A program made the position numbers and the translations under genes. A stretch of DNA of 64,000 bases, taken from the NCBI GenBank assembly GCA_029907705.1, contig JARYLJ010000002.1, positions 8,373-72,372 on the forward strand, given 5' to 3'. Positions within the stretch are counted from its first letter, which is position 1. Every line of letters starts with the position of its first letter. The stretch is from Methanomicrobiales archaeon (GTDB lineage: Archaea; Halobacteriota; Methanomicrobia; Methanomicrobiales; JACTUA01). Positions 37,055-62,672 of this stretch are shown here, in pieces. The notes below the pieces were generated by a model. That model was not told the DNA's origin. It did not search any database and saw only the letters and a program-made list of their open reading frames with translations.

Positions 37055-37173
37055 TCCATCGATCTCCTTCAGGTTCAGCTGCCAGCGCAGCTACATTCCT
37101 CAACGGGACGTATCCCGTGGTTCTTTATATATCGGCCGCTGGCTTATTAAAATACTCCGTCCCAGGCGGGCAA

Positions 37174-37650
37174 TCACCCGACCTTCCTCTTCTCCAGCAC
37201 CCGTATCTCACCGATCTCTGTCGAAGGGTACTGTCCCGCCGTATCCTTCTCCGCCGATTTCACCATGTCCCAGACCGTGAGCAGGGCGACGCTCACGCCG
37301 GTGAGTGCTTCCATCTCCACACCTGTCTTTCCCAGCGAGGTGACCCTCACCTGCACCTCCAGGTAGCCCTCCCCAAAGGAGAAGTCCACATCCACACCCG
37401 TGATGGGGATCTGGTGGCACATGGGGATCAGGGAGGAGGTCCCCTTCACCGCCATGATCCCTGCCACTTCCGCAGTGACCAGGACATTGCCCTTCACGAC
37501 CGAACCTGTTCTGATCGCCGTCAGCGTCTCCTCCCTCAGGTAAATCCGGCCCGATGCGATTGCCACCCTGTGAACCTCGCCCTTCTCTGTGATATCGATC
37601 ATATGGACGCGATCCCCCCGCATATGTGTGAATTCAGGCACTCTTCTCAC
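37174..37650 (-). CDS. moaC: cyclic pyranopterin monophosphate synthase
   Basis: 158 aa. FTHM......MIDI..K and KG.VL..A..AGI.A.K.T..LIP.CH motifs. Confidence 0.9.
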   Translation of the reverse strand: MRRVPEFTHMRGDRVHMIDITEKGEVHRVAIASGRIYLREETLTAIRTGSVVKGNVLVTAEVAGIMAVKGTSSLIPMCHQIPITGVDVDFSFGEGYLEVQVRVTSLGKTGVEMEALTGVSVALLTVWDMVKSAEKDTAGQYPSTEIGEIRVLEKRKVG

Positions 37651-39055
37651 CCCGCAGGACCGCAGGTATGAATGAAAGCAGATCGCTTGCGATCATCCCA
37701 TCGCCTCTGTCGAGCGCCGCTCTCTCCCCTGCAATCCCGTTCGCATATGTGGCAGCACAGGCCGCCTCGAACGCAGGCATCCTGCAGAAGAAGGCGGCCA
37801 CCGCACCGGCGAGGACATCCCCTGTGCCTCCCACCGTCATCGCAGGGCATCCGGAACGATTGAAACGGAGGCGCTCACCATCGGATACGATGTCGACTGG
37901 CCCCTTCAGGACCACCACTCCATTTCTCCGCGCATATCTCTTCACCAGCCTCGCCCTCTCGCGGAGATCTTTGGGTGGAAGCACCCCTGTCATCCTGCCG
38001 AATTCACCTGCATGCGGGGTATAGATGGTCATCTCCCCCACCGGCAGGGGTGTGCGGAGTGCATCGGCATCCACCACGAGCCGGCGGCAGCAGGATGCGA
38101 GTTTCTGTGCAACGCCATGGCCTTCGGGCCCCATCCCTGCACCGATCGCGACCACATCCGCCCAGGAGGAGAGCTTCAGGAGCGTCTCCAGATGCTCCTC
38201 TCCGATCCTCTCGCCCTCCAGCGGTTCGTAAATCAGATCTGGAAAGGACATCGCCACCGGGGAGGCGATCCGGACGAGATCTGCCCCGCTCCGGAGGGCG
38301 GCGAGTGCGGTCAGGTAGGGCGCCCCCTGATAAGGCCCTCCACCGACGACGAGCACCCTGCCCCCCGCACCTTTATGGGCATCTGCGCTCCTCTCGGGGA
38401 TCAGCAGCAGGTCGCCGGGGCCGGTGAAGATCTCTGCCTCGAGCGGGATACCGATACATGCCGTATCGACACCCTCCATCTTCGGGCGATGCAGGGCGAG
38501 TATCGCATCCGCCCTCGTGCCCTCCGTCGGAACGTCCACCGCCAGAATGAACGCTTCTGCCTCGTTCGCCATGCCGACGCATGTCCTGTAGGGTTCTCTC
38601 AGGCCTCCTCTCGCACCCGTCCCCAGAAGTGCATCCACCACGAGATCGGCGCTGTCGAACAGGTGTTTGAGCGCCTTCACCTCCTCCGGGCAATCGACCA
38701 CGTGAACCGAAACCGCACAGGACCCGAGGAGGCGGAGCTGCAGGCGGTTTTCATCCGATCTGCTCTCGCCGCCGATGCAGATCACAGAGGTCTCGAGATC
38801 GTTCTGCAGGTACCTGGCCGCCGCCATCCCATCGGCGCCGTTGTTCCCCTTCCCACACAGGACGAGGACCTTCGATGGTCCCTTCGCCCTGACCGCATTC
38901 GCGATCGCGGCACCTGCCGATTCCATCATCTGGAGAGTACCCACACCGAGTGCAATGGCATTCCTCTCGATCGCCCTCATCCTTTCAGAGGTGACGACGC
39001 CGGTATCGAGAAACTCCCGCAATCCGTTCAGCACCATCCCCGGCACACCATTCAT
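37634..39055 (-). CDS. nnr: bifunctional NAD(P)H-hydrate epimerase / ADP-dependent dehydratase
   Basis: Start moved to ATG 39055. N-terminal YjeF-N domain (LCGKGNNGADG) and C-terminal carbohydrate-kinase domain (GTGDVLAG). Confidence 0.85.
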   Translation of the reverse strand: MNGVPGMVLNGLREFLDTGVVTSERMRAIERNAIALGVGTLQMMESAGAAIANAVRAKGPSKVLVLCGKGNNGADGMAAARYLQNDLETSVICIGGESRSDENRLQLRLLGSCAVSVHVVDCPEEVKALKHLFDSADLVVDALLGTGARGGLREPYRTCVGMANEAEAFILAVDVPTEGTRADAILALHRPKMEGVDTACIGIPLEAEIFTGPGDLLLIPERSADAHKGAGGRVLVVGGGPYQGAPYLTALAALRSGADLVRIASPVAMSFPDLIYEPLEGERIGEEHLETLLKLSSWADVVAIGAGMGPEGHGVAQKLASCCRRLVVDADALRTPLPVGEMTIYTPHAGEFGRMTGVLPPKDLRERARLVKRYARRNGVVVLKGPVDIVSDGERLRFNRSGCPAMTVGGTGDVLAGAVAAFFCRMPAFEAACAATYANGIAGERAALDRGDGMIASDLLSFIPAVLRGEKSA

Positions 39056-39076
39056 CTCTATGGAGATATCTATATT

Positions 39077-40480
39077 ATGATGATGGGTCTTGCCCGCGAT
39101 CTGGAGGCTGCACTCGACCTCGTCACCGAGTCGGAGAAGGTCACCATTGTCTCCCATATCGATGCAGACGGAATATCGAGCGCCTCGATCCTGGAACGGG
39201 CACTCATGAGGGAGAGGATCGATGCCGGATGCCTCTTCGTCCGACAGCTCGAACCCTTCTCGATCAGGCAGATTCCGAGGGACGGCTCGATGTGCGTCTT
39301 CCTCGATCTGGGTTCGGGTCAGCAGAACCTGCTGGAAGCCCATGGTTTTTCACGGGATCGCGTCTTCATCATCGATCACCATGTAAGCCAGCCCTGCAGA
39401 GACCCCTATCGCGAGGTGAACGCCCTCGCCTATGGCTACCGCAAGTTCTCGGCGGCAGGGATGACATACCTCCTCGCGAAGGAGATGGATCCGGATAATG
39501 TGGAGTTCGCAAAACTGGCGGTGGTGGGAAACGTGGGGGACATGATGGCACGGGAGGATCTGGGCCTCACCGGCCCCGCACGCGAGATCGTGAAGGATGG
39601 CGTGGCTCATGGCAGCATCCGGGTGATGGAACGTGATCTGAACTGCTACGGGATCTCCACCAGGCCGCTGCACATCGCGCTCTCCTATATGGACGATCCC
39701 TTCGTGCCGGGGATTTCGAACAACAGCGGGGGAGTGCTCCGCCTCCTCCAGCGCCTGGGTGTCCCCCTGAGGAACCAACAGGGTGACTGGTCGGTCTGGG
39801 AGGATCTCTCCGACGAGCACAGGCGCCTGATCACCAGTGCAATCGCGCAGCAGCTCCTGGCGAACGGAAAGACGCATGAGCGACTGCTGACAGAGAACTA
39901 CATCTTTCTCGACGAAGCCCGGCGCACACCCTTGAGGAACGCCGGTGAATTCGCGACGCTCCTGAATGCGTGCGGCAGATGGGCGAAGCCGCTCATCGGT
40001 AGGGCGGTGTGCACCGGAGATCGCGGAGGTGCGTATCGTGAGGCAGAGCACATGCTGAAGCATCACCGCACCGTCATCAGGGAGCTGATGGAGTACATAC
40101 TGGATACGGGCGCGATCGAGCTCTCTCATCTCCAGTACCTTCACGTGGGGGGAAGGTTCCCGGATACCATCGTGGGTATAGGGGCGGGACTCGCCCTTTC
40201 CCGATTGAAGCGCGAGAAACCGTTCCTCGTGATGTGCCGGCTTCCCGAGGATACGAATGTGACGAAGGTGTCGATGCGGACGGTGGAGGACGTGGTCAGA
40301 AGGGGTGCGGATCTGCAGGCGGCACTCGTGGAAGCGGTCGCCGGCTGCGGTGGAGAGGCGGGTGGGCACAGGATAGCGGCAGGCGCCTACATACCGGCAG
40401 AGGTGGAGGAGGTGTTCGTTCATCAGGTCAATGGAATACTCGCAGGACAGCTCGATAAGACGGGTGCGTGTCATCGCTGA
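39077..40480 (+). CDS. DHH-family phosphoesterase (archaeal RecJ-like)
   Basis: Start moved to ATG 39077. The upstream 1 kb of the track ORF is antisense to nnr. SHIDADG and IIDHH motifs, DHHA1-like C-terminus. Confidence 0.8.
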   Translation: MMMGLARDLEAALDLVTESEKVTIVSHIDADGISSASILERALMRERIDAGCLFVRQLEPFSIRQIPRDGSMCVFLDLGSGQQNLLEAHGFSRDRVFIIDHHVSQPCRDPYREVNALAYGYRKFSAAGMTYLLAKEMDPDNVEFAKLAVVGNVGDMMAREDLGLTGPAREIVKDGVAHGSIRVMERDLNCYGISTRPLHIALSYMDDPFVPGISNNSGGVLRLLQRLGVPLRNQQGDWSVWEDLSDEHRRLITSAIAQQLLANGKTHERLLTENYIFLDEARRTPLRNAGEFATLLNACGRWAKPLIGRAVCTGDRGGAYREAEHMLKHHRTVIRELMEYILDTGAIELSHLQYLHVGGRFPDTIVGIGAGLALSRLKREKPFLVMCRLPEDTNVTKVSMRTVEDVVRRGADLQAALVEAVAGCGGEAGGHRIAAGAYIPAEVEEVFVHQVNGILAGQLDKTGACHR

Positions 40481-42864: not shown

Positions 42865-43325
42865 GCAATGCAGCGGGCAAGGCACTGCTGATCAGCCCCA
42901 TCCGGAATGGCACGGTCATCGATCACATCTCTGCGGGGGAGGCGCTGAACGTCCTGAAGATCCTGGGCATCACGGGGAGCACGACTGAATGCCTCTCGAT
43001 CGCGACGAACGTGACGAGCGGGCGCATAGGGAAGAAGGACATCGTGAAGATCGAGAACCGGGAGCTGAAGAAGGAGGAAGTCGACCGGATCGCCCTGATC
43101 GCCCCGAAGGCGACGATCAACATCATCAGGAACTTCGGGGTCTTCGAGAAGAAGGGGGTGAGGATCCCGCCTGTATTGAAGGGGGTGGTCAGATGCCCCA
43201 ACCCGGGGTGCATATCGAACACGATGGAGCCGATCCAGAGCACCTTCGAGGTGATACCAAAGGGCCTCCGCTGCATGTACTGCGACTGGGTGATCACGAA
43301 GGATATCGCGAATTATATCATCTGA
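42861..43325 (+). CDS. pyrI: aspartate carbamoyltransferase regulatory subunit
   Basis: Start moved to ATG 42861 (ATGA overlap with pyrB). IRNGTVIDHI and C-terminal CPNPGC...CMYC zinc domain. Confidence 0.95.
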   Translation: MSNAAGKALLISPIRNGTVIDHISAGEALNVLKILGITGSTTECLSIATNVTSGRIGKKDIVKIENRELKKEEVDRIALIAPKATINIIRNFGVFEKKGVRIPPVLKGVVRCPNPGCISNTMEPIQSTFEVIPKGLRCMYCDWVITKDIANYII

Positions 43326-43776
43326 TGAGTCTGCCCTCCGGATCGATCTCGCCCTTAAGAATGCGCGTGCTGGAGATCCATCTCCCGTCTTCGGCAAGAA
43401 CGCAGGCAATCTGATGTATGTCCACTTTTTTCAGCCCTTTTTCATGCCTCATGCGGTTGATCTCGATCGCGACCGGCAGCGTCTCCTCGCTCACCACCAG
43501 TGCATCGAAGTCGGCCTCGGCCGCCTCTCCGTATCTGTTGTCCAGCGGTTCGATCCTGTATTCCGCCTTCCAGGCCTGTTTTTTTATGAAATGGATCAGA
43601 TCCTCCCTCCTCTCCACGTATCTCCTCACCGGATGCTTCTTCAGGGAAGCGAAACGGTCCGTGGTGAGGCCGATGATCACGACTCCGCCCTCTCCCGCGA
43701 GCTCGAAGGAACGCTCGAGAAGCTTCCTGTGACCTCCGTGCAGGGGATCGAAGGTCCCGCCGACCATAACCTTCAT
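43318..43776 (-). CDS. coaD: phosphopantetheine adenylyltransferase (archaeal cytidylyltransferase-type)
   Basis: 152 aa. GGTFDPLHGGH nucleotidyltransferase motif and ISSTRI near the C-terminus. Confidence 0.85.
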   Translation of the reverse strand: MKVMVGGTFDPLHGGHRKLLERSFELAGEGGVVIIGLTTDRFASLKKHPVRRYVERREDLIHFIKKQAWKAEYRIEPLDNRYGEAAEADFDALVVSEETLPVAIEINRMRHEKGLKKVDIHQIACVLAEDGRWISSTRILKGEIDPEGRLIR

Positions 43777-43806
43777 TCACAGGAATGGTCAACATCTCTT
43801 TTTATA

Positions 43807-44298
43807 ATGGATACTGATGGAGGAGCGGCTCGGCCCCTCTTCGTCGCCCCTGGTGCGATTGTCACGGGGGATGTGATTTTGGATGAAGAAGTAAATATCT
43901 GGTACGGCGCCGTGATCAGGGGGGACAGGGATCGTATCAGTATCGGCAGGGGCACCAACATCCAGGACAACGCAGTGGTGCACACGAGCCGGGGCTATCC
44001 GGTCGGAGTGGGTGCGTACGTCTCCGTGGGGCACGGGGCGATCCTGCACGGGTGCAGGATAGCGGACCGGGTGCTCGTCGGTATGGGTGCGATTGTGATG
44101 AACGGAGCGAGCATCGGTCCGGGATCGATCGTCGGTGCAGGAGCAGTCGTGACAGAGAAGACCACAATACCTGAAAATTCGGTCGTTCTCGGAGTTCCCG
44201 GCAGGGTGGTCAGGTCCACGACGGCGGAAGAGTCCGCACACATCATGAGAAATGCACAGGGATACATCGAACTCGCCCGAGGGTATCTGCATGGGTGA
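43807..44298 (+). CDS. gamma-carbonic-anhydrase-like left-handed beta-helix protein
   Basis: Start moved to ATG 43807. Hexapeptide repeats and the IGRGTNIQDNAVVH pattern. The upstream part of the track ORF is antisense to coaD. Confidence 0.85.
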   Translation: MDTDGGAARPLFVAPGAIVTGDVILDEEVNIWYGAVIRGDRDRISIGRGTNIQDNAVVHTSRGYPVGVGAYVSVGHGAILHGCRIADRVLVGMGAIVMNGASIGPGSIVGAGAVVTEKTTIPENSVVLGVPGRVVRSTTAEESAHIMRNAQGYIELARGYLHG

Positions 44299-47829: not shown

Positions 47830-48672
47830 CTATCCGAACAGGGCAGCGGCGACGAAGATGGCGACCGCGGCGAACATGCCCTCCTTGAGCCTTCGGCTCG
47901 CGCCGATCGATCTGATGCAGTCCGGTGAAAGGCAGTAGAGCGCCTTCGCGGCGCCGATCAGCATCCAGGCATCCGCACAGGCGATGGCCAGTACATAGAA
48001 GATCCCCCACCCCGGCATGATGGGGAGCAGGCTGAACAGAACGGCGCCGGATATACATGCGAACGCAACGATGGAGGTGCGCCTCACTCCGTACCGCACC
48101 GGAAAGGTCGAAGCACCCCCCATCATATCTCCCTCCAGGTCTTCCGCCGACTTAAGGAGCTCCCTTGCCATCATTGCGAAGAGCGTCACAAGTGCCATTG
48201 CACCATTCGCGAGAAGCCCCCCCATCCCCGTGAATGCCCCGCCAAAGAGAAAAATGCTCGCGGCCAGGTAAGAGACCGCGAGGTTTCCGGCAATGGGTAC
48301 CCTCTTCAGCCTGCAGGCATAGAGCACGAGAAGGAGCGAGTTGAAGAGTGCGATGAGGAGGCAAAGGCGGTTGGTGAATGAAGAGAGGGCGACACCCAGG
48401 ATAAAGAGCAGTGCAGAGAAGAGGTATGCCTGGCGGAGCGTGACCTTTCCCGATGGGATCGGTCTATCGGGCCTGTTGACCGCATCGATGGCCAGGTCGA
48501 AGCAGTCATTTACCGCGTTACCTGCCGCCGTGATCAGCCCCACGATCGCCACCGGCATGAATACACCGAATGAAAGCGAGCCGCCGGCGACCAGGACGCC
48601 CAGTATGGTTGCGAGACCGGCCGCGACCGCATTCACCGGGCGTGTCAGTAAGACCAGACCCGAGAATTTCAT
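47830..48672 (-). CDS. digeranylgeranylglyceryl phosphate synthase (UbiA family)
   Basis: 280 aa. NAVNDCFDLAIDAVNRPDRPIPSG first Asp-rich motif and about 8 TM segments. Confidence 0.85.
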   Translation of the reverse strand: MKFSGLVLLTRPVNAVAAGLATILGVLVAGGSLSFGVFMPVAIVGLITAAGNAVNDCFDLAIDAVNRPDRPIPSGKVTLRQAYLFSALLFILGVALSSFTNRLCLLIALFNSLLLVLYACRLKRVPIAGNLAVSYLAASIFLFGGAFTGMGGLLANGAMALVTLFAMMARELLKSAEDLEGDMMGGASTFPVRYGVRRTSIVAFACISGAVLFSLLPIMPGWGIFYVLAIACADAWMLIGAAKALYCLSPDCIRSIGASRRLKEGMFAAVAIFVAAALFG

Positions 48673-48979
48673 AGAGCTACCCGATCGATCGCGCTACGGA
48701 GTAATGAAATCACCGGATCTTTCCACGAATACACGTATTCAGGTGGTGGTCAATCAAATCACCATACACTTCGATCTCCACCACCGGTACATCTGCATGA
48801 AGATCCGAATGGCAATTCTTCGATGGTCATCCCCGGCCTGGCTCGAAACAGGCAAGGTCGCCGGTACACTTCATCACTGATTTCATGCGATGCACAACAG
48901 TTCTCACGATATGCACTATGTCCATGGGCGCCCCTTCAGGAATCCGGCATCATCCATCGGACAGGATGCAAAAATGGAA

Positions 48980-49054
48980 CGGGCTTGGAGGGATTTGAAC
49001 CCCCGACATTTGGCTTAGGACGCCAACGCCCTATCCTGACTAGGCCACAAGCCC
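48980..49054 (-). tRNA. tRNA-Arg (CCU)
   Basis: Reverse complement GGGCTTG-TG-GCCTAGTCAGGATAGGGC-G-TTGGC-GTCCTAA-GCCAA-ATGTC-GGGGGTTCAAATCCCTC-CAAGCCC-G. Anticodon CCT. Position 32 is G, which is unusual. Confidence 0.8.
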
Positions 49055-49120
49055 AGAAAGACGTAATTATTTCTCCATCGCAGGGTATAAGTTTAACGAG
49101 GGGCAAGTTACGGGGGTTTT

Positions 49121-50233
49121 ATGGAGCTCAGAAGGGTCAGGGAGGGGAGCACTTCGTTCCTCGTGCCTGTGGCAGGAGGGGGATCGGATGCCGCTCCTCA
49201 GAAGGCGCCCATCTTCTACAACCCCTCCACCGAACTGAACAGGGACGCCACCATCCTACTCCTCTCCGTCATTCAGCCCTCCGATTATGTGGATGCGATG
49301 GGGGCGAGCGGTGTCAGGGGTCTGCGGGCGGCGAAGGAGTCAGGATTGAAGGTCCTGATCAACGACCACAATCCTCTGGCTGCAAAACTGATCGATGAGA
49401 ACGCCCGTTCGCTCGGTATCGCATGCGAGATCACGCGCCTGGACGTGAACGCCCTGCTCAGCTCCAGGCACTTCGATGCGGTGGACCTCGATCCCTTCGG
49501 GTCTCCCGCGCCATTCGCCGACAGTGCGATCAGGGCGGCGAGGCGTTTCCTCTTCGTCACCGCGACTGACACGGCACCCCTCTGCGGCGCCCATCTGAAG
49601 GCGGGGATGAGGCGATACTTCTCTTCATCCATGAACACAGAGTACCATGCAGAAGTAGGGATCAGGAACCTCCTGGGATTCGTCGCCCGCGAGGCCCTGA
49701 AGTACGACCGGGGCATCGAACCGCTCTTCTGCTTCGCGAAGCGCCATTATGTCCGCCTCCATCTGAGGCTGCAGCCAGGTGTCAGGGCGGCCGAGAGAAC
49801 GATGGAGCGCTTCGGATACATTCTCCAGTGCCCCGGATGCCCTTCGAGGGAGGAGGCGAGCGGCATCCTGCCGCCATGCAGGAGGTGCCCTCACTGCGGC
49901 GGCGAGATGAGACCGATCGGGCCTCTCTGGCTGGGCGGAATGCAGGATCGTTCGATCCTAGAGGCGATGGGATCCAGGCTCGGAGGCATGCGGCTCGGTA
50001 CCGCGAGGGAGCTTTCGCGACTACTCGCACTCTGCCGGGGGGAGCTCGATCTCTCCTATCATTTCGATTATCACAACCTCGCCAGGTATGCAAACCGCAC
50101 CCCCCCTCCGGCGGAGGTACTCCTCGATCGCCTCATGACGATGGGGTTCAAGGTGTGCAGGACTCATTATTCAGGCACCGCCATAAAAACAGATGCGCCA
50201 TTCGAAGAGATCATCAGGGCGCTCAGTGCCTGA
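49121..50233 (+). CDS. trm1: tRNA (guanine26-N2)-dimethyltransferase
   Basis: 370 aa. FYNP...NRD, DAMGASGVRGLR and C-terminal Cys cluster (CPGC...CPHCG). Confidence 0.9.
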   Translation: MELRRVREGSTSFLVPVAGGGSDAAPQKAPIFYNPSTELNRDATILLLSVIQPSDYVDAMGASGVRGLRAAKESGLKVLINDHNPLAAKLIDENARSLGIACEITRLDVNALLSSRHFDAVDLDPFGSPAPFADSAIRAARRFLFVTATDTAPLCGAHLKAGMRRYFSSSMNTEYHAEVGIRNLLGFVAREALKYDRGIEPLFCFAKRHYVRLHLRLQPGVRAAERTMERFGYILQCPGCPSREEASGILPPCRRCPHCGGEMRPIGPLWLGGMQDRSILEAMGSRLGGMRLGTARELSRLLALCRGELDLSYHFDYHNLARYANRTPPPAEVLLDRLMTMGFKVCRTHYSGTAIKTDAPFEEIIRALSA

Positions 50234-51338: not shown

Positions 51339-52306
51339 ACGCTCCTCCGATGCCGGTAGAACGGCACCCTGCCTCTAATATTAATGGAATCCTGCACTTA
51401 TAACGCTTGAGGAGACGATAGCGGTTATTCTGGCCGAGATTTTTCCTTCCCCGGATGGAAAAATCTGAAGGTCCGGGGAGGATGCGCGCCGCTGTATCCT
51501 TCGATTGAAACCCTATCCGGTGGACCGAAGCAGAATCTCGAACGATCACACGTATTTTCGCCTGCATTGATCACCCGATCCCCATTAAAAAAAAATCGTC
51601 GAACGTCGGTTCGAGCAGCGGGTTCACCCTTTCAGGAGAAAGACCGATGAACGCCGCTGATCGTCTGTTGGGTTCCATCTGGCCAGGGCATGCCGCATCG
51701 TTTGCCCAGCGCGATCCCGTCGATCCGACAGGATCACCGAAGCACGTTCCATCTGCAGGGCGCTCCTCGCCCTGACCCGGCATGAATTCATCGTGCGCCA
51801 TGTCGGTCCGAAAATGATCTCATCACCGGTTTCACAACAGGACGGAAGGATCGATGGATATGCTCTGGATCCGCAGTAGGAAAAATATGGGGGGCCACAG
51901 TCATAAGACCCCTGTTGCTCCATCTCCTCTGACGATGGAATTTTCTCAATAGATCCTCCATGAAGGTGTCAAAAAAAGAATGGATATCTCCGAATCTCCC
52001 GTCGGCTCAGGCCTTTCCAAATCCGCCATGCAGGCGCCACCCCATGCATGGTATAACGCATCTGCAGTGGCCATGGGGGGAAGGAGACGAAGATGAAAGA
52101 TCATTTTCGTCAGCCACTTTTCGTCAGCAACGCCTGCCACGGAGATTTTTTAAAAAATCCTGAAATATGAAAATCCATGGAGACACCCTCTGATCGTGAT
52201 ATTTCCATGGATAAGCGTTTTCCTGCTCCAAAAGAAAATTTCTGGCCTTTCTTATCGTGCCTATACGATACGTTTAAGTAAAAATCTGCCCAAAGTGATC
52301 AGAGCT

Positions 52307-52381
52307 GCTGCCATAGTGTAGACCGGTCAATCATGCAGGACTCTCACTCCTGCGACTCGGGTTCAAATCCCGATGGCAGCA
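52307..52381 (+). tRNA. tRNA-Glu (CUC)
   Basis: GCTGCCA-TA-GTGTAGACCGGTCAATCAT-G-CAGGA-CTCTCAC-TCCTG-CGAC-TCGGGTTCAAATCCCGA-TGGCAGC-A. Anticodon CTC. Confidence 0.9.
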
Positions 52382-53016
52382 TTCTGTTATACGTGGTCAA
52401 AGTCCATTTTTAACTTTTTTTTATCGATGATCCAAAAAGGCGTTCGCAGATAAGATATTCACCATATTAACGCCCGGTTGAATCATCCTCAGACCAGCGA
52501 CCGGATCGCGGGTTCTTCGGTACGGTGAAGGGAGGAGATAGGGATAAAGCACCGTGCGACCGACCCTCCAAGCCCCCGAATCGGGGCAGAATAAGTACAG
52601 TGAGAGATCATGGACGATTGAGGAGTCTCACTGCGGCGTGATGTATCGATGCGGCATCGCACGATGTCAGTGGATGGAGGAAGAGGTGCAGATCTCTTCG
52701 GAAGAACAGCTGCATGACCGGCCGGTCCGACGACCGGGACAGGAAGATCGAGTCACTCGCAGGCGGTCGAGATTCAGCATCGATGGTAAATTGTTTCATG
52801 GGAGCCGGTATGTCGCCCGGTCCGTATACCACAAATCATCTTCGGACGATCTCCACATGCTCTCTCTTCGTTTTCATTGTCCCGGGTCTGAGTTATTCCA
52901 TCATCAAAAGACTTCAGGGTACCATCATTTCGGGATCAGTAGAAAAGAATGCCATTCGAACACCCATCCTGAAAAAACCCCGAAGAAATCCGCATGCAGC
53001 TGCAGACAGTCCTGAT

Positions 53017-53973
53017 TCATCGCCATCGTATCCCCCATGCAATTCGGTCTATCGCCTCACAATACCGGTTCGCCGGAAATCTGTCGAGGCGTCTTCTGCA
53101 CTCGCGTATCAATTCATCCGCCACCTCCTGCGTGCGTACGATTGCACCTGACGAGATGATCTGCTTCTTCAATGCCTCCACTACGCGGTCGTCCGTAGTA
53201 ACCCTGGCGATGGTGCGGAGAATATCACCGCCGCCCTCCGATTCGGCATAGACGATGACCGGGAGAGTGATGACGCCCCTCCTCAGGTCATTGCCGGGGG
53301 ATTTGCCCGTGCTGCCCCCGTCCCCTGTGATATCCATGAGGTCATCCATCAACTGGAAGGCGGTTCCGAGCAGCCTTCCGCATTCTTCGAGCGACTTCAG
53401 ATCCCCTGCATCGGCACCCGACGCGATCCCCGCCATCGTCATACCGGCAGCAAAGAGCGACGCAGTCTTCCGGTTCACGATCTCGAAATACTCCTCCCTC
53501 GACATCCGGCACGTTCCATCACCGCTGCATTCCCTGATCTCGCCATCGCACAACTCGCATACAGCGGATGTGATCTCGGATAAAAGATCGGGATTCCGAA
53601 GATCAGCGACCTTCTGCAATGCCCTTGAAAGCAGGAAGTCACCTGCGAGAACGGAGGCGCTGACATCCCAGCGTATGTGCAGCGATTCACGCCCCCTGCG
53701 CATCGGGACACCGTCGATGATGTCGTCGTGTATGAGCGTGCCAGCATGGATCATCTCCACGGCGGTCGCGATCTCGATAAGTGCCCTCTCCTCTCCGCCG
53801 AGCATCCCTCCGGTGAGGAGCACGAGCACCGGGCGGATGCGTCCCCCTCCACCCAGGTCATATGGCAGCATCTGCCTGAGTGGCAGGGCTGCCTCACCGC
53901 TGATCGCATGGAGCTCCTGCTCCACCTGATCGAGCTCTTTCCTGATGATCGGGTCCGGATCAGGGAATCTCAT
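53017..53973 (-). CDS. idsA: polyprenyl diphosphate synthase (GGPP-synthase-like)
   Basis: Start moved to ATG 53973. LIHDDIID (first DDxxD) and FQLMDDLMD (second) motifs. Confidence 0.85.
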   Translation of the reverse strand: MRFPDPDPIIRKELDQVEQELHAISGEAALPLRQMLPYDLGGGGRIRPVLVLLTGGMLGGEERALIEIATAVEMIHAGTLIHDDIIDGVPMRRGRESLHIRWDVSASVLAGDFLLSRALQKVADLRNPDLLSEITSAVCELCDGEIRECSGDGTCRMSREEYFEIVNRKTASLFAAGMTMAGIASGADAGDLKSLEECGRLLGTAFQLMDDLMDITGDGGSTGKSPGNDLRRGVITLPVIVYAESEGGGDILRTIARVTTDDRVVEALKKQIISSGAIVRTQEVADELIRECRRRLDRFPANRYCEAIDRIAWGIRWR

Positions 53974-55194
53974 CCCCTCCCCCGGTGGCACCCATGAAAC
54001 AGGACGGATCCTCCTGCATGAAGTCCCCTGTGATCGCGCGTGCCCTCGCCCGGCACCCTCCACAGACCACGCGGTAGGGGCAGGCACCGCACTTCCCCTT
54101 CAGGGCGGTCTCACGTGCTCTCAGTGTTTCGAGGATTGGAGAAGCCCTCCAGAGCTCAGAAAACGGCCTCTCACGGACATTTCCACAGGAGATATCGAGG
54201 AAGGGGCATGGCAGAACCTCGCCGTCGGGCTTTATGTACACGAATCCATGGCCTGCGCTGCAGCCATGGAACAATGTACCGGCGAGTCGCAGGGTCACGC
54301 CACCACGGATCCCGCGACGGTCGAGCAGGTGGGCCCTGTACTGGGGAGCTGCCACCGGTTCGATGATCGCCCTGCACGATGCCTGCGCCGCTCCAAGGAA
54401 CCTGACAAGCCTCTCATATCCCTTCGCATCGAGGGCTGATCGCTCGATCTTTCGGCCCTCCCGATGGGCACGAGCTGGTACATCAGGAGGATGGCGGCAT
54501 CGAGTTCATTGACCAGCTCCAGGATGGACTCCATCTCTTCCAGGTTCTGCTCCATTGCGGTGATATTGATATGAATAGGGATTCCTGCCCGGTGAAGTAC
54601 AGAGATCCCCTCGATCGCTCCGTCGAAGGCGCCCCTCACCCCTCTGATCGCATCGTGCGTCTTTGCATCACCGCCATCGAGGCTGACTGCCGCGATCTCC
54701 ACCCCGCAGCTCTTCAGGCGCAGGGCGATCTCGCGGTCGACGAGGGTTCCGTTGGTCGCGATGGTGCTGGAAAACCCGAGACCGCGGGCATATGCCAGAA
54801 GCTCGAAAAGGTCATCCCTCAGGAGGGGTTCCCCGCCGGTGAAGGCGCACATCCTGAACTCCCGCACCACGGCCAGTTCCCCGAGGAGCTTCATCCCCTC
54901 TTCCGTGGAGAGCTCCGTTCCTGCACGTGAAGAGCCCCTCGCGTGGCAGTGTATGCAGTCCAGGTTGCACCTTGCTGTGATCTCCCATACAGGGTGGTTC
55001 GGGAAACCGATACACCCCATGCCGAGGGCACCGGCAGCACCCCTCATGCACCTCACGCCGTGCCGCATCAGCCACCGGGGCAGGTATCTCCATTCTGTGA
55101 GGAGGCCGAGGACGAGTGCGGACGCCGCCTGCCGCAGGAGCAGCGAGGGAGGCATATAGAACGGATGCACCCTTTTTCGATCCCCTGAAGTCAT
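53960..55194 (-). pseudogene. radical SAM / SPASM-domain protein (NirJ/AhbD/PqqE-like), frameshifted
   Basis: N-terminal part in ORF 54295-55194 (ARCNLDCIHCHA cluster, FTGGEPLL). The SPASM C-terminus (CPF...CGACPYRVVCGGC) is in ORF 53960-54355, in another frame. The frames meet at GCCGAAAGATCGAG (plus-strand TTT 54450-54452). One extra A would restore ...PIGRAEKIERSALDAKGYERL... Confidence 0.75.
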
Positions 55195-56142
55195 AAGAGC
55201 AGCCCTGCCACCAGCGAAGCGGACGTGCCCAGGTTGACGAGGATGTTCGCCCCGCAGAGGCGTTCGATCTCCTCCCTGCCCCTCCATCCTCCTCTGATCA
55301 TCCGGTACACGAGTCCGATGGAGACACCGAGGGATGGTACGTACAATATGAGGGCAAACGGGATCGAGGCATACATAGCGGCGAGGATGAAGGCCGCCCA
55401 CCCGAGCACGGCAGCTGCGATGTATATCTGCACAACTCTTCGATGTCCCAGTCTGACGAGCAGATTCGCCTTCCCGGTGGCAAGGTCTGCCTCGTAATCG
55501 GGGAATTCGTTAAGGAGGATGACGTTGAAGACCGAGAAAGAGATGGGCAGCGCCATCAGGTAGAGATGAGGCGTGATAATGCCTGACTGGAGGTAGAAGA
55601 AGGTGACAACGGGAAGCCACCCGTAACAGATGGCGATCCAGAGCTCTCCTGCCCCCCCTGCTCATCCAGCGGACAGGCCGTGAGGAGTAGAGAAAACCGC
55701 CGGTGATCCCCAGGAGGCCGAGCGGAATGGTCAGCGGACCCGTGCCATGGAAGAAGAAGAGGAGGCAGCCCACGCCCAGCGCCAGTACGAGGGCGAGGAT
55801 CGATGCCTGGAGCGCAGCACTCCTCTGCACCAGGCCGCTCTGTACAACGCCGGAGCCACCCGAGTATCGGGAGGCACCCCTCTCTCTCGCGATGAGGTCC
55901 TCCTCGAAATCCCAGTACTCTCCAGCATAATACGTGCAGAGCATCACCAGCACAACACCGGCAGCGCCACAGCCGGCGATCTCCAGCCGGAGAGTGCCCA
56001 GGTATCTCCACGCGATGGCGTTGCCGAGCACGAACGGCAGAAGGCCCACCAGATGGAACGGCGGTCGTGACAGTGCGTACCATGCCGCCAGCCTGCGCAC
56101 CGCAGCGCACGAATGCGGGCACTCGAGTTCTGATTCTTCCAT
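55191..56142 (-). pseudogene. UbiA-superfamily prenyltransferase (MenA-like), frameshifted
   Basis: N-terminal part in ORF 55510-56142, C-terminal part (NEFPDYEADLATGKANLLVRLG second Asp-rich motif) in ORF 55191-55556. The frames meet at a G7 run on the coding strand (plus C7, 55652-55658). Six G would restore ...RWMSRGAGELWIAICYGWLPVV... Confidence 0.75.
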
Positions 56143-56331
56143 GGAACAGGATGCGATTGGCAGGGTACCTGCATAAATGTTCCCTTCCGGTGAACACCAA
56201 AAAGGCGATCAGAGATCGCCATCGCATCGTGTCGCGCCCACGTATACAGGAGCGAACAGGCATCCGGTGCAGGGGAGCACCGGCAGGGCTGGATGAGGGG
56301 CATACTGTGACGGCCTCGTGATCCTGCGGCG

Positions 56332-56538
56332 GTGATGACCATGCACGACCTGAACCAGGCGCTCCGTTTCGCCGATCGCTTCATCTTCCTGAAGGGTGGG
56401 AAGGTGCATATCCTTGGTGGAGTGGAGGTGGTCACTTCCGGGATGGTCGAGGAGATCTATAGTCTCCCGGTGATCATAGGGGAGATCGGGGGTATGACGT
56501 GCGTCGTTCCACGTTGTAATGCGAAAGGGGCTATATGA
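56332..56538 (+). pseudogene. C-terminal fragment of an ABC-transporter ATPase (FepC/BtuD-like)
   Basis: 68 aa. MTMHDLNQALRFADRFIFLKGGKVHILGGVEVVTSGMVEEIYSLPV corresponds to the H-loop-to-C-terminus region only. Walker A/B and the signature motif are absent upstream. Confidence 0.7.
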
Positions 56539-56565: not shown

Positions 56566-57216
56566 ATGTGCGAGAACAATACTGATTCGCACATCCATGC
56601 GAATCCGCATACACATGACGAGTACCCCTCGTTCGATGAATGCGTCCGTTTCCACGGTCACAGCTGCCCTGGTCTCGCAATGGGGTATCGGGCCGCTACA
56701 GCCGGGATGAGGAGACTGGGTGTAAAACGTCCATATGACGAAGAACTCGTCTGTATCGCAGAGACGGATGCCTGTGGCGTCGATGCCATCCAGATGATCA
56801 CCGGCTGCACGTCCGGAAAGGGAAACCTGATCGTCCATGATTACGGGAAACATGTCTTCACACTCATCTCCAGGGAGAGCGGAAGAGCGGTCCGCATCCT
56901 GGTGAGGCAGGTGGAGATGCCAGAACGCGAGGCGATGGACGAAATGAGGAGAAGGATCCTCTCCGGAACCGCAGACGAAGGGGAGGAACATGCATTCAGG
57001 CGCCTCATGGGGATCGTGACGGAGAGGATGCTCAAATGTCCTGAAACGGAGATGCTGGAGGTCAGGGATATCGAGATCGCACCGCCGGCAAAGGCAAGGA
57101 TCTTCACTTCTGTCGCATGCGCCTGCTGCGGCGAACCTGTGGCGGATGCAAGAATAGAGGTTATCGATGGTGCGCGGGTCTGTATCCCGTGTGCGAAGAA
57201 AGTTGTCCGGAGATGA
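56566..57216 (+). CDS. FmdE-family protein with C-terminal zinc ribbon
   Basis: 216 aa. FHGHSCPGLAMGYR and ETDACGVDAIQ motifs of FmdE domains. CACCGEP...CIPC tail. Confidence 0.85.
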   Translation: MCENNTDSHIHANPHTHDEYPSFDECVRFHGHSCPGLAMGYRAATAGMRRLGVKRPYDEELVCIAETDACGVDAIQMITGCTSGKGNLIVHDYGKHVFTLISRESGRAVRILVRQVEMPEREAMDEMRRRILSGTADEGEEHAFRRLMGIVTERMLKCPETEMLEVRDIEIAPPAKARIFTSVACACCGEPVADARIEVIDGARVCIPCAKKVVRR

Positions 57217-57502
57217 GTTCGTAGGGATTTTTTTAACGCACACGTTGATTTGGGATAGATCTCCATAAGTCCACAGGGACCGATACCCAAGGCCTCCCGT
57301 GCCACCGGACTTTTTTATTCATATATCAGATCGATGAGAGATCCATGTTCCTGCACGCTGGCCGATCCCTCCACGGCATGATTCACCTCTGGGTTGATCC
57401 CTTCGGCATGTGTCCGTCGATGCGTCTGAAAGCAGAGAGAAGTGTGGAAATCATCGTGATCAAATTTTCGGAATTATAAGAATATTTAGAAAAATCAAAA
57501 AA

Positions 57503-57511
57503 TTAATATAT
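57503..57511 (+). promoter_or_regulatory. candidate TATA box for the abrB-like/arsM operon (leaderless geometry)
   Basis: TTAATATAT lies in an AT-rich stretch about 23-31 nt upstream of ATG 57534. This spacing would put the transcription start at or next to the start codon. Confidence 0.4.
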
Positions 57512-57533
57512 TTTTGCATCCACCTGTATTCAG

Positions 57534-57818
57534 ATGAGTATGGATACCATCGGGGATGGATGCTGTCCGGTCTCGGAACCGTGCGGAAGATGCGTGATCG
57601 AGGCCGTGCTCAGTGTCGACGAACGCGGGCAGGTGGTGCTCCCGAAGGAGCTCAGGATGCGTGCGGGCATCGGTGCAGGGGAGAAGCTGGCCGCCATCGG
57701 ATGGGAGAAGGAGGGGAGGATCTGCTGCATCATGCTCTATCCTGTGAAGCAACTCGAAGAACCGGTGAAGGCGATGGTCGCCCCGATGTTCAGGGACCTT
57801 CTGAAAGGGGGGGAATGA
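57534..57818 (+). CDS. AbrB/MazE/SpoVT-family DNA-binding protein with Cys-rich N-terminus
   Basis: 94 aa. SVDERGQVVLPKELRMRAGIGAGEKL is a SpoVT-AbrB swapped-hairpin domain. N-terminal GDGCCPVSEPCGRC and an internal ICC. The stop overlaps the arsM ATG (ATGA). Confidence 0.75.
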   Translation: MSMDTIGDGCCPVSEPCGRCVIEAVLSVDERGQVVLPKELRMRAGIGAGEKLAAIGWEKEGRICCIMLYPVKQLEEPVKAMVAPMFRDLLKGGE

Positions 57819-58657
57819 CGATGCAGGGGGAGAGATTGAAGAAATCGGTCCGGGATAGGTATGGAAGAATCGCTCAAACAGAGGGGTCCTGCTGCGGGAG
57901 CACGCCGGGATGCTACAGCGGCATCGATCAGGCGAGGGATGTGGCCAGGAAGAATGGATATTCGGACGAGGATTTGAATGCCCTCCCTGATCGCGTGAAC
58001 CTCGGCCTCGGCTGCGGAAATCCGGTGGCACTCGCCTCCCTGCGAGAGGGGGAGACGGTCCTCGATCTGGGATCGGGGCCGGGATTCGACTGCCTGCTCG
58101 CTGCCCGAAGAGTGGGTGCTCGTGGTCATGTGATCGGCGTGGATATGACACCTGAGATGGTATTTCGCGCACGCGAGCATGCAGAAGAAGCCGAAATCAC
58201 GAACGTGGAGTTCAGGCTCGGCGAGATCGAACATCTTCCGGTCGCGGACAGTTCCGTGGATGTGATCATCTCGAACTGTGTGATCAATCTCGCAATCGAC
58301 AAAGGGCAGGTCTTTCGGGAGGCGTTCCGCGTGCTGAAACCGGGCGGGCGACTTCTCATATCCGATATCGTACTGCTCAGCCCCCTTCCAGAGTGCGTGA
58401 GAGGGTCTGTGGACGCATACACGGGTTGCATCTCGGGTGCGATGCTGAAGCAGGATTTCGTGGATGCCGTGAAAAAAGCCGGATTCCAGCATGTGGAGAT
58501 TCGGAAAGAGGTGCCATTCTCACTGGAATACGTGATCAGCGATCCATCCACATCGTCGCCCGTGACCCGGCGGATCCTGACAGAAGATGGGATCGGGGGG
58601 ACGGAGAAGTCCATCGCGAGCATCCATCTCTTCGGGAGAAAGGAAACGAATTCCTGA
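57815..58657 (+). CDS. arsM: arsenite S-adenosylmethionine methyltransferase
   Basis: Start moved to ATG 57815. SCCG, LGCGNP, VLDLGSGPG (SAM), SNCVINL and GCISGA motifs include the conserved As(III)-binding cysteines. Confidence 0.85.
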   Translation: MTMQGERLKKSVRDRYGRIAQTEGSCCGSTPGCYSGIDQARDVARKNGYSDEDLNALPDRVNLGLGCGNPVALASLREGETVLDLGSGPGFDCLLAARRVGARGHVIGVDMTPEMVFRAREHAEEAEITNVEFRLGEIEHLPVADSSVDVIISNCVINLAIDKGQVFREAFRVLKPGGRLLISDIVLLSPLPECVRGSVDAYTGCISGAMLKQDFVDAVKKAGFQHVEIRKEVPFSLEYVISDPSTSSPVTRRILTEDGIGGTEKSIASIHLFGRKETNS

Positions 58658-58736: not shown

Positions 58737-59093
58737 TCAATCCCCCAATCTGACGAGAATTCGTTCCCCCTCTATCTTCAGCTCGTGGGTCTTGAGCGGA
58801 TGCGGTGCCTTGAATAGTCTGGAGACAGACTGGATAATGCCCGACCAGTCGGTCCAGCGGACCACATGCCCGTCGCCGAGATCGAACTCGGAATGATGCC
58901 GGGGGCAGGTGACGATCGTACTCTTCAGTTCTCCTTTCGAGAGATCCCCACCAAGATGTGGGCATCGGGAATCTGCCGCATAGTAGCGTCCCCCTATACG
59001 GGCGACCAGGATCTCGCGTCCATCGACGTTCACCTTTTTCATTGCACCCTCCTCGAGATCGCGGGTGCTCATCACATCCCTGAATTCACTCAT
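58737..59093 (-). CDS. Rieske [2Fe-2S] domain protein
   Basis: 118 aa. CPHLGGDL ... CPRHHSEF ligand boxes. Confidence 0.85.
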   Translation of the reverse strand: MSEFRDVMSTRDLEEGAMKKVNVDGREILVARIGGRYYAADSRCPHLGGDLSKGELKSTIVTCPRHHSEFDLGDGHVVRWTDWSGIIQSVSRLFKAPHPLKTHELKIEGERILVRLGD

Positions 59094-60739: not shown

Positions 60740-61372
60740 ATGGTTCCCCTGATCCTCGATCTGAGAGGGAAGAAGGTGATTATCTTCGGAGGAGGAGCCG
60801 TGGGGGCGAGAAAGGCGCGCTTTTTCTACGGTGAGGCGATGATAAAGGTGATCAGCCGGACCTTCTCCCGCGAAATCGAGGGGATGGATCTGGAGAGGAT
60901 CTCTATCGACCTTTCTCTGGTGGACGATGAACGTCTCCGTTCTCTCGTCAGAGGTGCATCACTCGTCGTCGCAGCCACACCTGCAAGGGAGATCAATGAC
61001 CGGATCGGAAGGATTTGCCGGGAGCAGGGAATTCTCTTCAACAATGCGGACGGTGAGCCAGGCGATGCGATACTGCCTGCGGTGAGCGGGGGTCGGAATT
61101 ATCTCGTCGCGGTCACGACGTTCGGCAGGAGCCCGGCATTCGCGCGATATCTTCGAATGATCCTGGACGAACGTTCCCATGAGTTCGACATGATGATCTC
61201 ACTGCAGGAGCGCCTGAGAAGCTGGCTGAAGGCGCAGGAGCCAGATGGATTCAGGAGATCGCAGATCCTGCGTGCCGTGATCAGCGACCCGGATGTGTGG
61301 AACGACTTGCGAGAGGGTGAAGGGAAGGCGATGGACCGCGTGAAGGAGAGATACCTCGATGAATACGTCTGA
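60740..61372 (+). CDS. precorrin-2 dehydrogenase / sirohydrochlorin ferrochelatase (siroheme synthase N-terminal type)
   Basis: 210 aa. L.GKKVIIFGGGAVGARKA Rossmann start, typical of SirC/CysG-N. Confidence 0.85.
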   Translation: MVPLILDLRGKKVIIFGGGAVGARKARFFYGEAMIKVISRTFSREIEGMDLERISIDLSLVDDERLRSLVRGASLVVAATPAREINDRIGRICREQGILFNNADGEPGDAILPAVSGGRNYLVAVTTFGRSPAFARYLRMILDERSHEFDMMISLQERLRSWLKAQEPDGFRRSQILRAVISDPDVWNDLREGEGKAMDRVKERYLDEYV

Positions 61373-62672
61373 TTTCACGGTCAAGCCTGAACTGGCGTAC
61401 CATATCGAGATTGCCATCGCTTCGCTAAGCCACCACCATGCCCGCATACAGGAGATCGAATCATTTCGTTTTTCTGACGAGAAGAGTCTCCTCGAAAGAG
61501 CGAAGGGTATTTTCAAGGGTGTCTTGCTGCTCCAGACCTGTAACAGAGTAGAGGTGATCGTTCATGGGGGAATCGAGTTGCTTCAAAGCTTCCTGGAGGA
61601 AGAGGGCAGGTCAGGGCACAGGCTTCTGGAGGGGGAGGCAGCCCTCCGTCATCTCCTGGAACTCTCATCCGGTATGGACTCCATGATCGTCGGTGAGGAC
61701 CAGATCATCGGACAGATGAGGCAGGCGTTGAAACGGGCGGAAGAGGCAAAGTCAGTGGATCCGTATCTCAGAACATGTATGGAGAAGGCGATCCACGTGG
61801 GAGTCCTCGTCAGGCAGAGGACGAGGATCAATCGTGGTGCCGTATCCATCGGATCCGCTGCCGTGGAACTGGCAGAGAGACTCCTGGGCGGCCTGGAGAA
61901 ACGCCACATACTCGTGATCGGTACCGGTGAGATGGGCAGCCTCGTGGCAAAGGCACTGGCGGAGAGGGGGCTGTCCGCAATATATGTGGCGAACAGGACG
62001 TACGATCGGGCGGTCTCGCTCGCAGAGGAGATTGGAGGAAAGGCCGTCCGTCTCTCGGAGCTGTACAATTATATCAGACTATCCGACGTCGTGATCTCCT
62101 GCACCTCTGCACCGCACCCGATCATTTACAGGGAGAAGCTTCAGCCTGTAATGGAGGAGCGGAGATGGCCGCTGGAGAAGCATCCGAGGCCGCTCGTGAT
62201 CATCGATATCGCCCAGCCGAGGGATGCAGAGGAGGGGGTGCAGGAGATCGATGGTGTGCAGCTGTACACCATCGATGATCTCCGCTGCATCAGCGAGAAC
62301 AACCTGCACAGCAGGATGACGGAGATCGAGCAGGCGAGGGTCATCGTCGAGGACGAGCTTGCACACTGCAGGAGGCTGCTCGCGAGGAGTTCTGTCGAGG
62401 ACATCATCGCCTCCATTTACACATGGGCAGAGGCGATACGCGTGAGAGAGAAGGAAAGGGCGTTGCATCGTATGAGAAACTCGTCCGCTGCTCCCGAGGG
62501 GATACTGGATGACCTGACCATGGCACTCGTAAACAAGCTGCTTGCCGACGTGACCTATTCGATCAGGGAATGCGGGGAGAAGGGCGACCTGAAGGGGGCG
62601 GAGGCCATCCTTTTCGCCCTTACGAAGAGATCGAGGCCGCCAAGGGGAAGAAATTTTTTTAGAGCAGAATAA
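61359..62672 (+). CDS. hemA: glutamyl-tRNA reductase
   Basis: 437 aa. LLQTCNRVE active-site Cys motif and GTGEMG NADPH fold. Overlaps the previous gene by 14 nt. Confidence 0.95.
   Translation: MNTSDFTVKPELAYHIEIAIASLSHHHARIQEIESFRFSDEKSLLERAKGIFKGVLLLQTCNRVEVIVHGGIELLQSFLEEEGRSGHRLLEGEAALRHLLELSSGMDSMIVGEDQIIGQMRQALKRAEEAKSVDPYLRTCMEKAIHVGVLVRQRTRINRGAVSIGSAAVELAERLLGGLEKRHILVIGTGEMGSLVAKALAERGLSAIYVANRTYDRAVSLAEEIGGKAVRLSELYNYIRLSDVVISCTSAPHPIIYREKLQPVMEERRWPLEKHPRPLVIIDIAQPRDAEEGVQEIDGVQLYTIDDLRCISENNLHSRMTEIEQARVIVEDELAHCRRLLARSSVEDIIASIYTWAEAIRVREKERALHRMRNSSAAPEGILDDLTMALVNKLLADVTYSIRECGEKGDLKGAEAILFALTKRSRPPRGRNFFRAE

Follow-up and report, generated by a model that had tools for sequence, protein, structure and literature searches.

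In the late futalosine pathway, the UbiA-type enzyme MqnP prenylates a carboxylated naphthoquinol, and the pathway has a separate decarboxylase, MqnL/MqnM. Another membrane-bound enzyme of the UbiA family, the 1,6-dihydroxyphenazine prenyltransferase, is said to put an isoprenoid on a phenazine. Here we analyze an operon that invites comparison with these systems. It is found in a 64-kb stretch of DNA (hereafter the window) from the 98-kb contig JARYLJ010000002.1, which belongs to a metagenome-assembled genome (MAG) held at NCBI under the name 'Methanomicrobiales archaeon'. The three minus-strand genes of the operon (53017-56142) code for a UbiA-family prenyltransferase, a radical S-adenosylmethionine enzyme with a SPASM domain (radical SAM/SPASM, hereafter rSAM) and a trans-polyprenyl diphosphate synthase, and the first two are each broken by a single frameshift. 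Taking all the evidence together, the best explanation, and one that we consider reasonably probable, is that a conserved module of three genes has recently been inactivated at this locus.

By analogy, the logic of the module may be that of the late futalosine pathway, with a prenylation and a separate removal of a carboxyl group. The putative decarboxylase would nevertheless be a radical SAM/SPASM enzyme and not UbiD/UbiX, and the module UbiA gives no significant match to the MqnP model of NCBIfam. Another parallel, which bears on the phenazine-like product among those suggested by the original prediction, can be drawn with the phenazine prenyltransferases and with the methanophenazine of Methanosarcina, where a UbiA-family enzyme and an isoprenoid on a redox-active aromatic are also encountered. 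This similarity holds at the family level only, and the module differs in that no phenazine genes lie nearby and that the host lineage lacks cytochromes.

Organization of the operon and properties of its products

The three genes are tightly coupled. The stop codon of the UbiA gene (55191..56142, minus strand) and the start codon of the rSAM gene (53960..55194, minus strand) overlap in an ATGA at 55191-55194, while the rSAM stop (53960) and the ATG of the synthase gene (53973) share 14 nt. Both overlaps recur in the closest relative of the operon, locus L001 from an uncultured Methanolinea sp. The original prediction had described this arrangement, and had assigned the products to a MenA-like UbiA, an AhbD/NirJ-like SPASM radical SAM enzyme and a polyprenyl synthase, the latter intact. 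All of this is confirmed: both overlaps are where they had been placed, the Pfam and NCBIfam matches support the three family assignments, and the synthase frame is uninterrupted with both DDxxD motifs kept. An oligo-T tract, read from the sequence (T6 on the coding strand; 52972..52977, minus strand), lies 40 nt 3' of the synthase stop, just after a GC-rich palindrome, and the two together form a possible operon terminator.

Repaired as described below, the first gene encodes a protein of 316 residues that falls in the MenA/UBIAD1 clade of the UbiA family. It matches PF01040 with 91 bits, for a gathering threshold of 34.2. Its best NCBIfam model is MenA (E 3e-21), with a score of 76.3 bits that is far below the equivalog cut-off of 264; a bacterial orthologue is also below it, with 74.8 bits. 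Against TIGR00751, the repaired protein reaches 50.5 bits for a cut-off of 102.15. The closest solved structure is that of the eukaryotic UBIAD1 (E=6e-13). Chlorophyll synthase comes as a distant second, with an E-value of 1e-7 among the NCBIfam models and of 1e-3 among the solved structures, and haem o synthase gives no match in either set. The two acidic motifs, E75-x-x-D78-x-x-E81-D82 and N211-x-x-x-D215-x-x-x-D219, are present in the repaired protein and are invariant in 20 orthologues. The second one, NEFPDYEADxxxGKxNLxVRLG, resembles that of MenA, to which the module protein is also related by the PF01040 fold and by being encoded together with a polyprenyl synthase of predicted long-chain type, as quinone tails require. 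On the other hand, the first motif reads GEYWDxxED and not NDxxDxxxD, the scores are those of a protein outside the equivalog, and MenA is not paired with a radical SAM/SPASM gene as the module UbiA is. The module UbiA is 31-33% identical to bona fide MenA, and because the two coexist in one Anaerolineales genome, we take it to be a paralogue with its own role. Similarly, since the window holds an intact gene for DGGGP synthase, the housekeeping lipid enzyme of the UbiA family (47830-48672, minus strand, 7 kb away; 310.6 bits against NF009521, cut-off 296), the frameshifted UbiA gene can be regarded as an accessory paralogue.

The repaired rSAM protein has 411 residues and clearly belongs to the radical SAM/SPASM enzymes (PF04055, 105 bits; PF13186, 41 bits). 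Like AhbD, NirJ and AhbC, it possesses a CX3CX2C motif (CNLDCIHC) and a complete set of SPASM cysteines (GCSAG, PCPF, CGAC, CGGC and PSCF), and its residues 70-400 align with the AhbD model over its full length. By analogy with AhbD and NirJ, the chemistry that it shares with them is likely a radical oxidative decarboxylation or the cleavage of a carboxylate side chain. The protein stays, however, below every equivalog cut-off, with 312.6 bits for AhbD (TIGR04545, cut-off 500), 286.5 for NirJ2 (TIGR04055, cut-off 500) and 269.9 for TIGR04053 (cut-off 395), and the bacterial orthologues score alike. It further differs from AhbD and NirJ by a conserved N-terminal extension of about 65 residues that lies outside their models and has an amphipathic/hydrophobic helix and the pattern PPxLxxRQ...W...GCIGxPxHPVWE, and by its gene partner, which is a prenyltransferase instead of ahb or nir genes. 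Among solved structures, the closest are PqqE, SkfB and the radical SAM decarboxylase BlsE.

The synthase (53017..53973, minus strand; 318 residues, MDH7592896.1) is a member of PF00348 (200.5 bits). Its first aspartate-rich motif is IHAGTLIHDDIID (DDIID), the second is DDLMD, and no departure is found at 36 conserved columns. The top NCBIfam models are the encapsulin cargo polyprenyl transferase (186 bits), HepT component II (183 bits) and IdsA (180 bits, below the cut-off of 468 of NF040698), followed by nonaprenyl, solanesyl and hexaprenyl synthases. In such enzymes, chains no longer than C15-C20 are obtained when an aromatic residue occupies position -5 or -4 relative to the first DDxxD. 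The window synthase has Gly/Thr at these positions, and its orthologues Ala/Thr; a Gly/Thr-type pattern belongs to long-chain synthases of the IspB/HepT type, for example IspB from Escherichia coli. From these features, the product is predicted to be a medium- or long-chain polyprenyl diphosphate. The name idsA given to the gene by the original prediction, which implies a short-chain enzyme, has thus to be abandoned, as the residues at -5/-4 are those of long-chain enzymes and the best models include heptaprenyl, solanesyl and hexaprenyl synthases.

A conserved module in uncultured anaerobes

The distribution of the module was scanned with one genome per GTDB species. A relative was found in 190 species, from which the 80 best loci were fetched, all of them from MAGs or enrichment drafts. 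The rSAM gene is adjacent to the UbiA gene in about 70 of these 80 loci, and the synthase gene follows in about half, an arrangement borne out by the loci in which genes were called. When 5.8 billion proteins were searched with the UbiA sequence, hundreds of orthologues were recovered at 50-59% identity, one at 67% and none closer. The bacterial carriers are Anaerolineae and other Chloroflexota, Syntrophaceae/Smithella and WOR-3, to which single loci from Thermotogae, Planctomycetaceae and Dehalococcoidales are added. The archaeal ones are Methanolinea, Bathyarchaeia, Asgard archaea (Hermod- and Odinarchaeia), Hadarchaeota and one Thermoplasmatales MAG. The operon is thus not peculiar to this methanogen, for whose cytochrome-free kind the original prediction had not expected such a pathway as standard: the module is widespread, conserved, and intact in other Methanolinea MAGs. 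Between Anaerolineae and Bathyarchaeia, the rSAM proteins are 77% identical, a value in keeping with a module that strong purifying selection maintains as it spreads horizontally, and the patchy distribution of the module among uncultured anaerobes of both domains is probably the result of horizontal transfer.

No module member tested, bacterial orthologues included, reaches a curated NCBIfam cut-off, and no description of a UbiA-rSAM-synthase module was found in the literature searched. The novelty claimed for the operon also withstands an inspection of the orthologous loci, as none of their contexts links the module to a pathway already known. As far as can be told, we are thus dealing with a conserved, widespread and uncharacterised module.

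A divergently transcribed gene for a conserved membrane protein of about 120 residues lies directly upstream of the UbiA gene in 31 loci, from Anaerolineae, Bathyarchaeia and a Thermotogae MAG (for example, on the minus strand, at 7479-7853 in L004, 9435-9815 in L007 and 5482-5859 in L044). Neither the window nor the Methanolinea loci encode this protein, which gives only sub-threshold Pfam matches (DUF2878/DUF817). We regard it as a probable fourth member of the module. Menaquinone genes stand beside the module in two Anaerolineae/Chloroflexota lineages. In L007, from an Anaerolineales MAG, the interval 14884-16544, 1.7 kb downstream of the module, encodes a MenG/UbiE (202 bits, cut-off 158) and a bona fide MenA, which scores 133 bits with TIGR00751 (cut-off 102), and in L004 a MenG/UbiE gene (11228-11950, minus strand) directly adjoins it.

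Frameshifts in the window copy

In the window, the first UbiA open reading frame (ORF) runs in a single frame from the ATG at 56142 to 55510, and the second one (55556..55191), which bears NEFPDYEADLATGKANLLVRLG, is in another frame. Removing one G from the G7 run at 55652..55658 (minus strand; C7 on the plus strand) gives SRGAGELWIAICYGWLPV and joins both ORFs into the protein of 316 residues. As the sequence stands, the break puts the two acidic motifs on separate ORFs, and the UbiA frame is therefore not uninterrupted. Relatives carry AGGGGAGTC (SRGVGE) at this site, so that the G6 run from which the shift arose is specific to this lineage.

In the rSAM gene, repair and frame segmentation show that one base is missing within GGGCCGAAAG (54450..54458, minus strand), where the frame changes, and the addition of one base there yields the protein of 411 residues. 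The original prediction was correct in attributing a single frameshift to each of the two upstream genes and in pointing to their clustering, and less so in placing the second lesion in the AAA at 54450-54452. Turning A3 into A4 at that position has the same effect on the reading frame as a repair with G, and gives GRA instead of GRG. Turning G3 into G4 at 54456-54458 gives VPIGRGRKI, with the GRG motif that is kept in at least 90% of the orthologues, and we favour this repair because the conserved GRG is restored.

We then analyzed the whole window with a codon-usage model trained on it and a six-frame coding-potential segmentation, and read the translations at the switches. Within genes, the frame switches only at 54450/54451 and 55647/55648; all remaining same-strand switches coincide with gene boundaries. 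The other homopolymers of the window, namely eight G/C7, 28 G/C6 and 36 A/T runs of at least six bases, do not disrupt any gene. Accession numbers tell the same story: between the synthase (MDH7592896) and the next placed gene, of the FmdE family (MDH7592901), there are four annotated proteins, which is consistent with two split genes called as four pieces, and elsewhere the spacing agrees with our gene count, small ORFs apart. Segmentation, homopolymer survey and accession spacing thus reveal no further frameshift in the 64-kb window and its some 60 genes. The initial claim that no other gene is split holds on these three lines of evidence as far as frameshifts are concerned, and is incomplete in that a truncated ABC ATPase remnant lies just upstream of the UbiA start. 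Other frameshift candidates, at 3161-3511, 10211-10926, 17855-19137, 35313-36445, 37634-40480, 43294-44298, 48823-50233 and 57410-58657, turned out to be ordinary adjacent or antisense ORFs.

One would wonder whether such lesions could be regulatory, through phase variation or through a programmed ribosomal or transcriptional slippage that would still deliver full-length enzymes. Both lesions indeed lie in homopolymers, and a G7 tract is able to slip during replication or transcription. Yet the corrections needed are opposite, one base fewer at the first site and one more at the second, and the sites show no slippery heptamer of the canonical X XXY YYZ type. With 7 bases, the first tract is shorter than typical contingency tracts, and the second has only 3-4. 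Neither of them is conserved in relatives, as the orthologue frames are uninterrupted and the nucleotides differ at both sites. A regulatory origin of the lesions is thus highly improbable.

Probable erosion of the module in methanogens

Three methanogen versions of the module were compared: that of the window, that of an uncultured Methanolinea sp. represented by two assemblies (L001 and L008, whose DNA is 98.3% identical) and that of other Methanolinea (L002, L003 and L009). The genomic context of the module differs in each of the three methanogen genomes. These copies are the fastest-evolving of the module. Indeed, the mean identity of the methanogen rSAM proteins to other members is 54-56%, against a typical value of 65%, and among the 133 columns with a conservation of 95% or more, they depart from the consensus at 10-13, the median being 1.

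The closest relative of the window is the L001/L008 pair (67% identity for UbiA, 74% for rSAM), and it is damaged as well. In L001, the rSAM gene contains an in-frame TAG at 6357-6359 (GAF*GAIEG), where the conspecific L008 reads GAG, hence a single G to T change. Moreover, in both assemblies, the synthase (7012-7998 in L001, 8173-9156 in L008) has kept an open frame in which HDDIID has become HDAVIG and the second DDxxD has become DDIAR, with conserved Arg/Lys positions altered too. Judging from these substitutions, it is probably a dead enzyme. Recoding of the stops of relatives as selenocysteine or pyrrolysine was considered and rejected, as those of L001 and L023 fall at different columns. 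Apparent internal stops in L030, L073 and L043 were likewise discarded, being real gene ends or located upstream of the start.

These data bear directly on the possibility that the MAG contains two assembly or sequencing errors, one at each frameshift, and that the organism itself has three intact genes and a working module. The origin of the window from a MAG, the 7-base homopolymer at one of the sites and the isolated stops or frame breaks in other MAG loci of the family would all be in keeping with it, and a mixture of strains, in a region acquired horizontally, could cause errors of the consensus to accumulate in one place. The repaired proteins also keep every catalytic and invariant residue, as intact genes would. 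On the other hand, the assembly is not generally prone to indels, because no other frameshift is found in about 60 genes despite 36 G/C and 36 A/T runs of at least six bases. The second lesion sits in a run of only 3-4 bases, of which the window has thousands. Two indels falling at random over some 65 genes would strike neighbours within one operon with a probability of about 3-5%. Finally, the sister lineages have undergone a substitution to TAG and a missense loss of DDxxD motifs, which indel-type errors do not explain. Artefacts at both sites are, in our opinion, rather unlikely.

The damage thus affects different components by different kinds of mutations across lineages, a pattern hard to attribute to indel-type assembly error, and it is for this reason that we raised our estimate that the window frameshifts are real. 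We infer that they are quite likely of biological origin and represent a recent decay, the preservation of catalytic and invariant residues in the repaired proteins arguing that the lesions are recent. In this scenario, the module would be under relaxed constraint in the Methanoregulaceae-type methanogens that carry it, and in the window a +1 G slippage in the UbiA gene and a one-base deletion in the rSAM gene would have silenced the first two steps of the operon and spared the synthase. The original prediction had left the choice between decay and phase-variable silencing. Decay is supported by the nonsense allele of L001, the dead synthase of L001/L008 and the divergence of the methanogen clade, and phase variation has no support, the tracts being short, unconserved and shifted in opposite directions.

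Several observations nevertheless weigh against a decay of the methanogen copies. The window sequence comes from a MAG, and sequencing errors classically occur in runs such as this G7. No second assembly of the species was found, the best UbiA match being 67% identical; a DNA pattern spanning the first site, with G6 to G8 allowed, had no match in metagenome contigs, and exact look-ups with three window proteins, the synthase among them, gave no further contig on record. The repaired UbiA keeps every column invariant across the 20 orthologues on both sides of its frameshift, and since no invariant residue has been lost from the repaired proteins, the lesions are either very recent or artefacts. 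Other MAG copies are broken too: L023 (Anaerolineales UBA6131) has an internal TAG at 2339, and matches are split over two frames in L057, L062 and L070 for rSAM, and in L016 and L032 for the synthase. These breaks could be explained by MAG error rates as well as by decay or insertions. Within the species of L001 and L008, the ratio of nonsynonymous to synonymous substitution rates in the module and in its flanks is based on too few substitutions to show relaxation. Lastly, the divergence of the methanogen clade could come from a change of function and not from relaxed constraint.

Possible product of the module

The properties of the three proteins suggest the following scheme. The synthase would make a medium- or long-chain polyprenyl diphosphate. 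Within the membrane, UbiA would then attach this chain to a head group that is aromatic, naphthoquinol-like and carboxylated. Finally rSAM, which the N-terminal helix would tether to the membrane, would perform a radical oxidative decarboxylation or a side-chain cleavage on this head group, to give a quinone-like lipid cofactor. We propose such a step for rSAM because its closest relatives, AhbD, NirJ, MftC and BlsE, do such chemistry. That the product would be quinone-like is favoured by the affinity of UbiA with MenA/UBIAD1, the long-chain signature of the synthase and the menaquinone genes found beside the module in two lineages. On this basis, a long-chain prenylated, quinone-like compound can be put forward as the most likely answer, if a tentative one that may well prove wrong. 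Indeed, no head-group pathway is encoded near the module, and within the 64-kb window there are no men or mqn genes for the synthesis of 1,4-dihydroxy-2-naphthoate. MenG is linked to the module in just 2 of about 75 distinct loci, and the closest characterised relatives of rSAM act on tetrapyrroles, not on quinones.

An alternative is that the module modifies a tetrapyrrole. An AhbD-like reaction would convert propionate to vinyl, UbiA would prenylate, and the product would be a lipid-anchored tetrapyrrole, by a chemistry that resembles that of haem o or chlorophyll synthase. In favour of this hypothesis, the seven best NCBIfam models for rSAM are the tetrapyrrole side-chain enzymes AhbD, NirJ2, AhbC, NirJ1 and NirJ plus the uncharacterised SPASM relatives TIGR04053 and TIGR04347, and the top models are the same for bacterial orthologues. 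UbiA does match chlorophyll synthases, if weakly. In one Methanolinea locus (L002), no more than about 1.2 kb separates the module from the cfb genes for F430, and in the window sirC-like and hemA genes are 4.6 kb away. However, UbiA is far closer to MenA/UBIAD1 than to chlorophyll synthase, according to the E-values given above, and does not match haem o synthase at all. The long-chain signature of the synthase contrasts with the C15/C20 donors of haem o or chlorophyll, and tetrapyrrole genes are not recurrent neighbours of the module across 79 loci. We thus consider a tetrapyrrole product improbable.

Coming back to the quinone-like compound, a broader hypothesis would be that the module represents a so far overlooked way to make a redox cofactor or lipid with a long prenyl chain, and that cytochrome-free methanogens have gained this horizontally shared module and are now losing it. 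We put this forward with reservation, as a possibility that falls somewhat short of even. In such a route, rSAM may replace a conventional decarboxylation or a step that forms the head group, and the membrane protein of about 120 residues may be a part of it in many genomes.

Surroundings of the operon and other features of the window

Upstream of the operon, the plus strand carries the remnant of an ABC ATPase of the BtuD/FhuC type (56332..56538), identified by translation and profile match. Its last 70 residues or so are left, which match residues 185-250 of BtuD/FhuC (E=0.0014) and include the H-loop HDLN; the first 185 codons or so are gone, and would overlap the UbiA gene. Three-frame translation of 56270-56538 shows an in-frame TGA and a frame break upstream of the remnant. 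This remnant lies against the start of the UbiA gene on one side and, on the other, precedes the intact gene of the FmdE family at 56566-57216.

On the other side, the region 51339-53016 (1.7 kb, GC 0.508) has no convincing gene and only a tRNA-Glu(CUC) (52306..52382, plus strand), located 634 nt past the 3' end of the operon. In the public record there is one coding sequence in this region, MDH7592895, as deduced from the accession numbering. The region could be the scar of a rearrangement that brought the operon in. A direct repeat with 17 of 20 positions identical (CCAAAAAGGCG...; 52432-52451 and 56197-56216) was examined as a candidate for an integration-site repeat. Its copies lie 50 nt after the tRNA-Glu and 55 nt before the UbiA start. 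About 23 pairs of 11-mer seeds are expected in 14 kb, and the repeat was dismissed as no better than chance. A foreign base composition was rejected as well, since the GC content at third codon positions of the module (0.68-0.76) is inside the range of the window (0.744±0.053).

Further along the window (57534-58657 and 58737-59093), a small AbrB/MazE-like gene is followed by a gene for an ArsM/UbiE-type SAM methyltransferase, whose true start is near 57815; the ORF of 415 residues at 57410-58657 is over-extended at its 5' end. A Rieske ferredoxin gene comes after the methyltransferase, on the opposite strand. The precorrin-2 dehydrogenase/SirC-like gene and hemA, which encodes glutamyl-tRNA reductase, occupy 60740-62672. 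The region 29131-31035 (1.9 kb) is gene-poor, with a lower GC content, and contains a tRNA-Asp (30253-30327). Beside it, at 30342-30420, ARAGORN calls a tRNA with the 4-base anticodon 'gcgc', a call that Rfam does not confirm and that may correspond to an intron-containing or degenerate tRNA. Finally, an eL15-Euryarchaeota ribosomal leader (37067-37117, minus strand; Rfam, 38.8 bits against 33.7) is located upstream of the L15e gene (36464-37054).

Significance

Taken alone, the broken copy of the window is a case of routine gene decay, or possibly of MAG error, and its value lies in drawing attention to a module that is tightly conserved. Of greater interest are the occurrence of this uncharacterised UbiA-radical SAM-synthase module in two domains of life and the pattern of its probable erosion in cytochrome-free methanogens. 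It occurs in uncultured anaerobes, in at least 190 genomes at the species level, and no curated functional family matches it. If its product is a membrane quinone-like carrier, it would bear on membrane electron transfer in fermenters, syntrophs, Asgard archaea and some methanogens, and the decaying copies of the methanogens would then mark the lineages in which the compound is dispensable.

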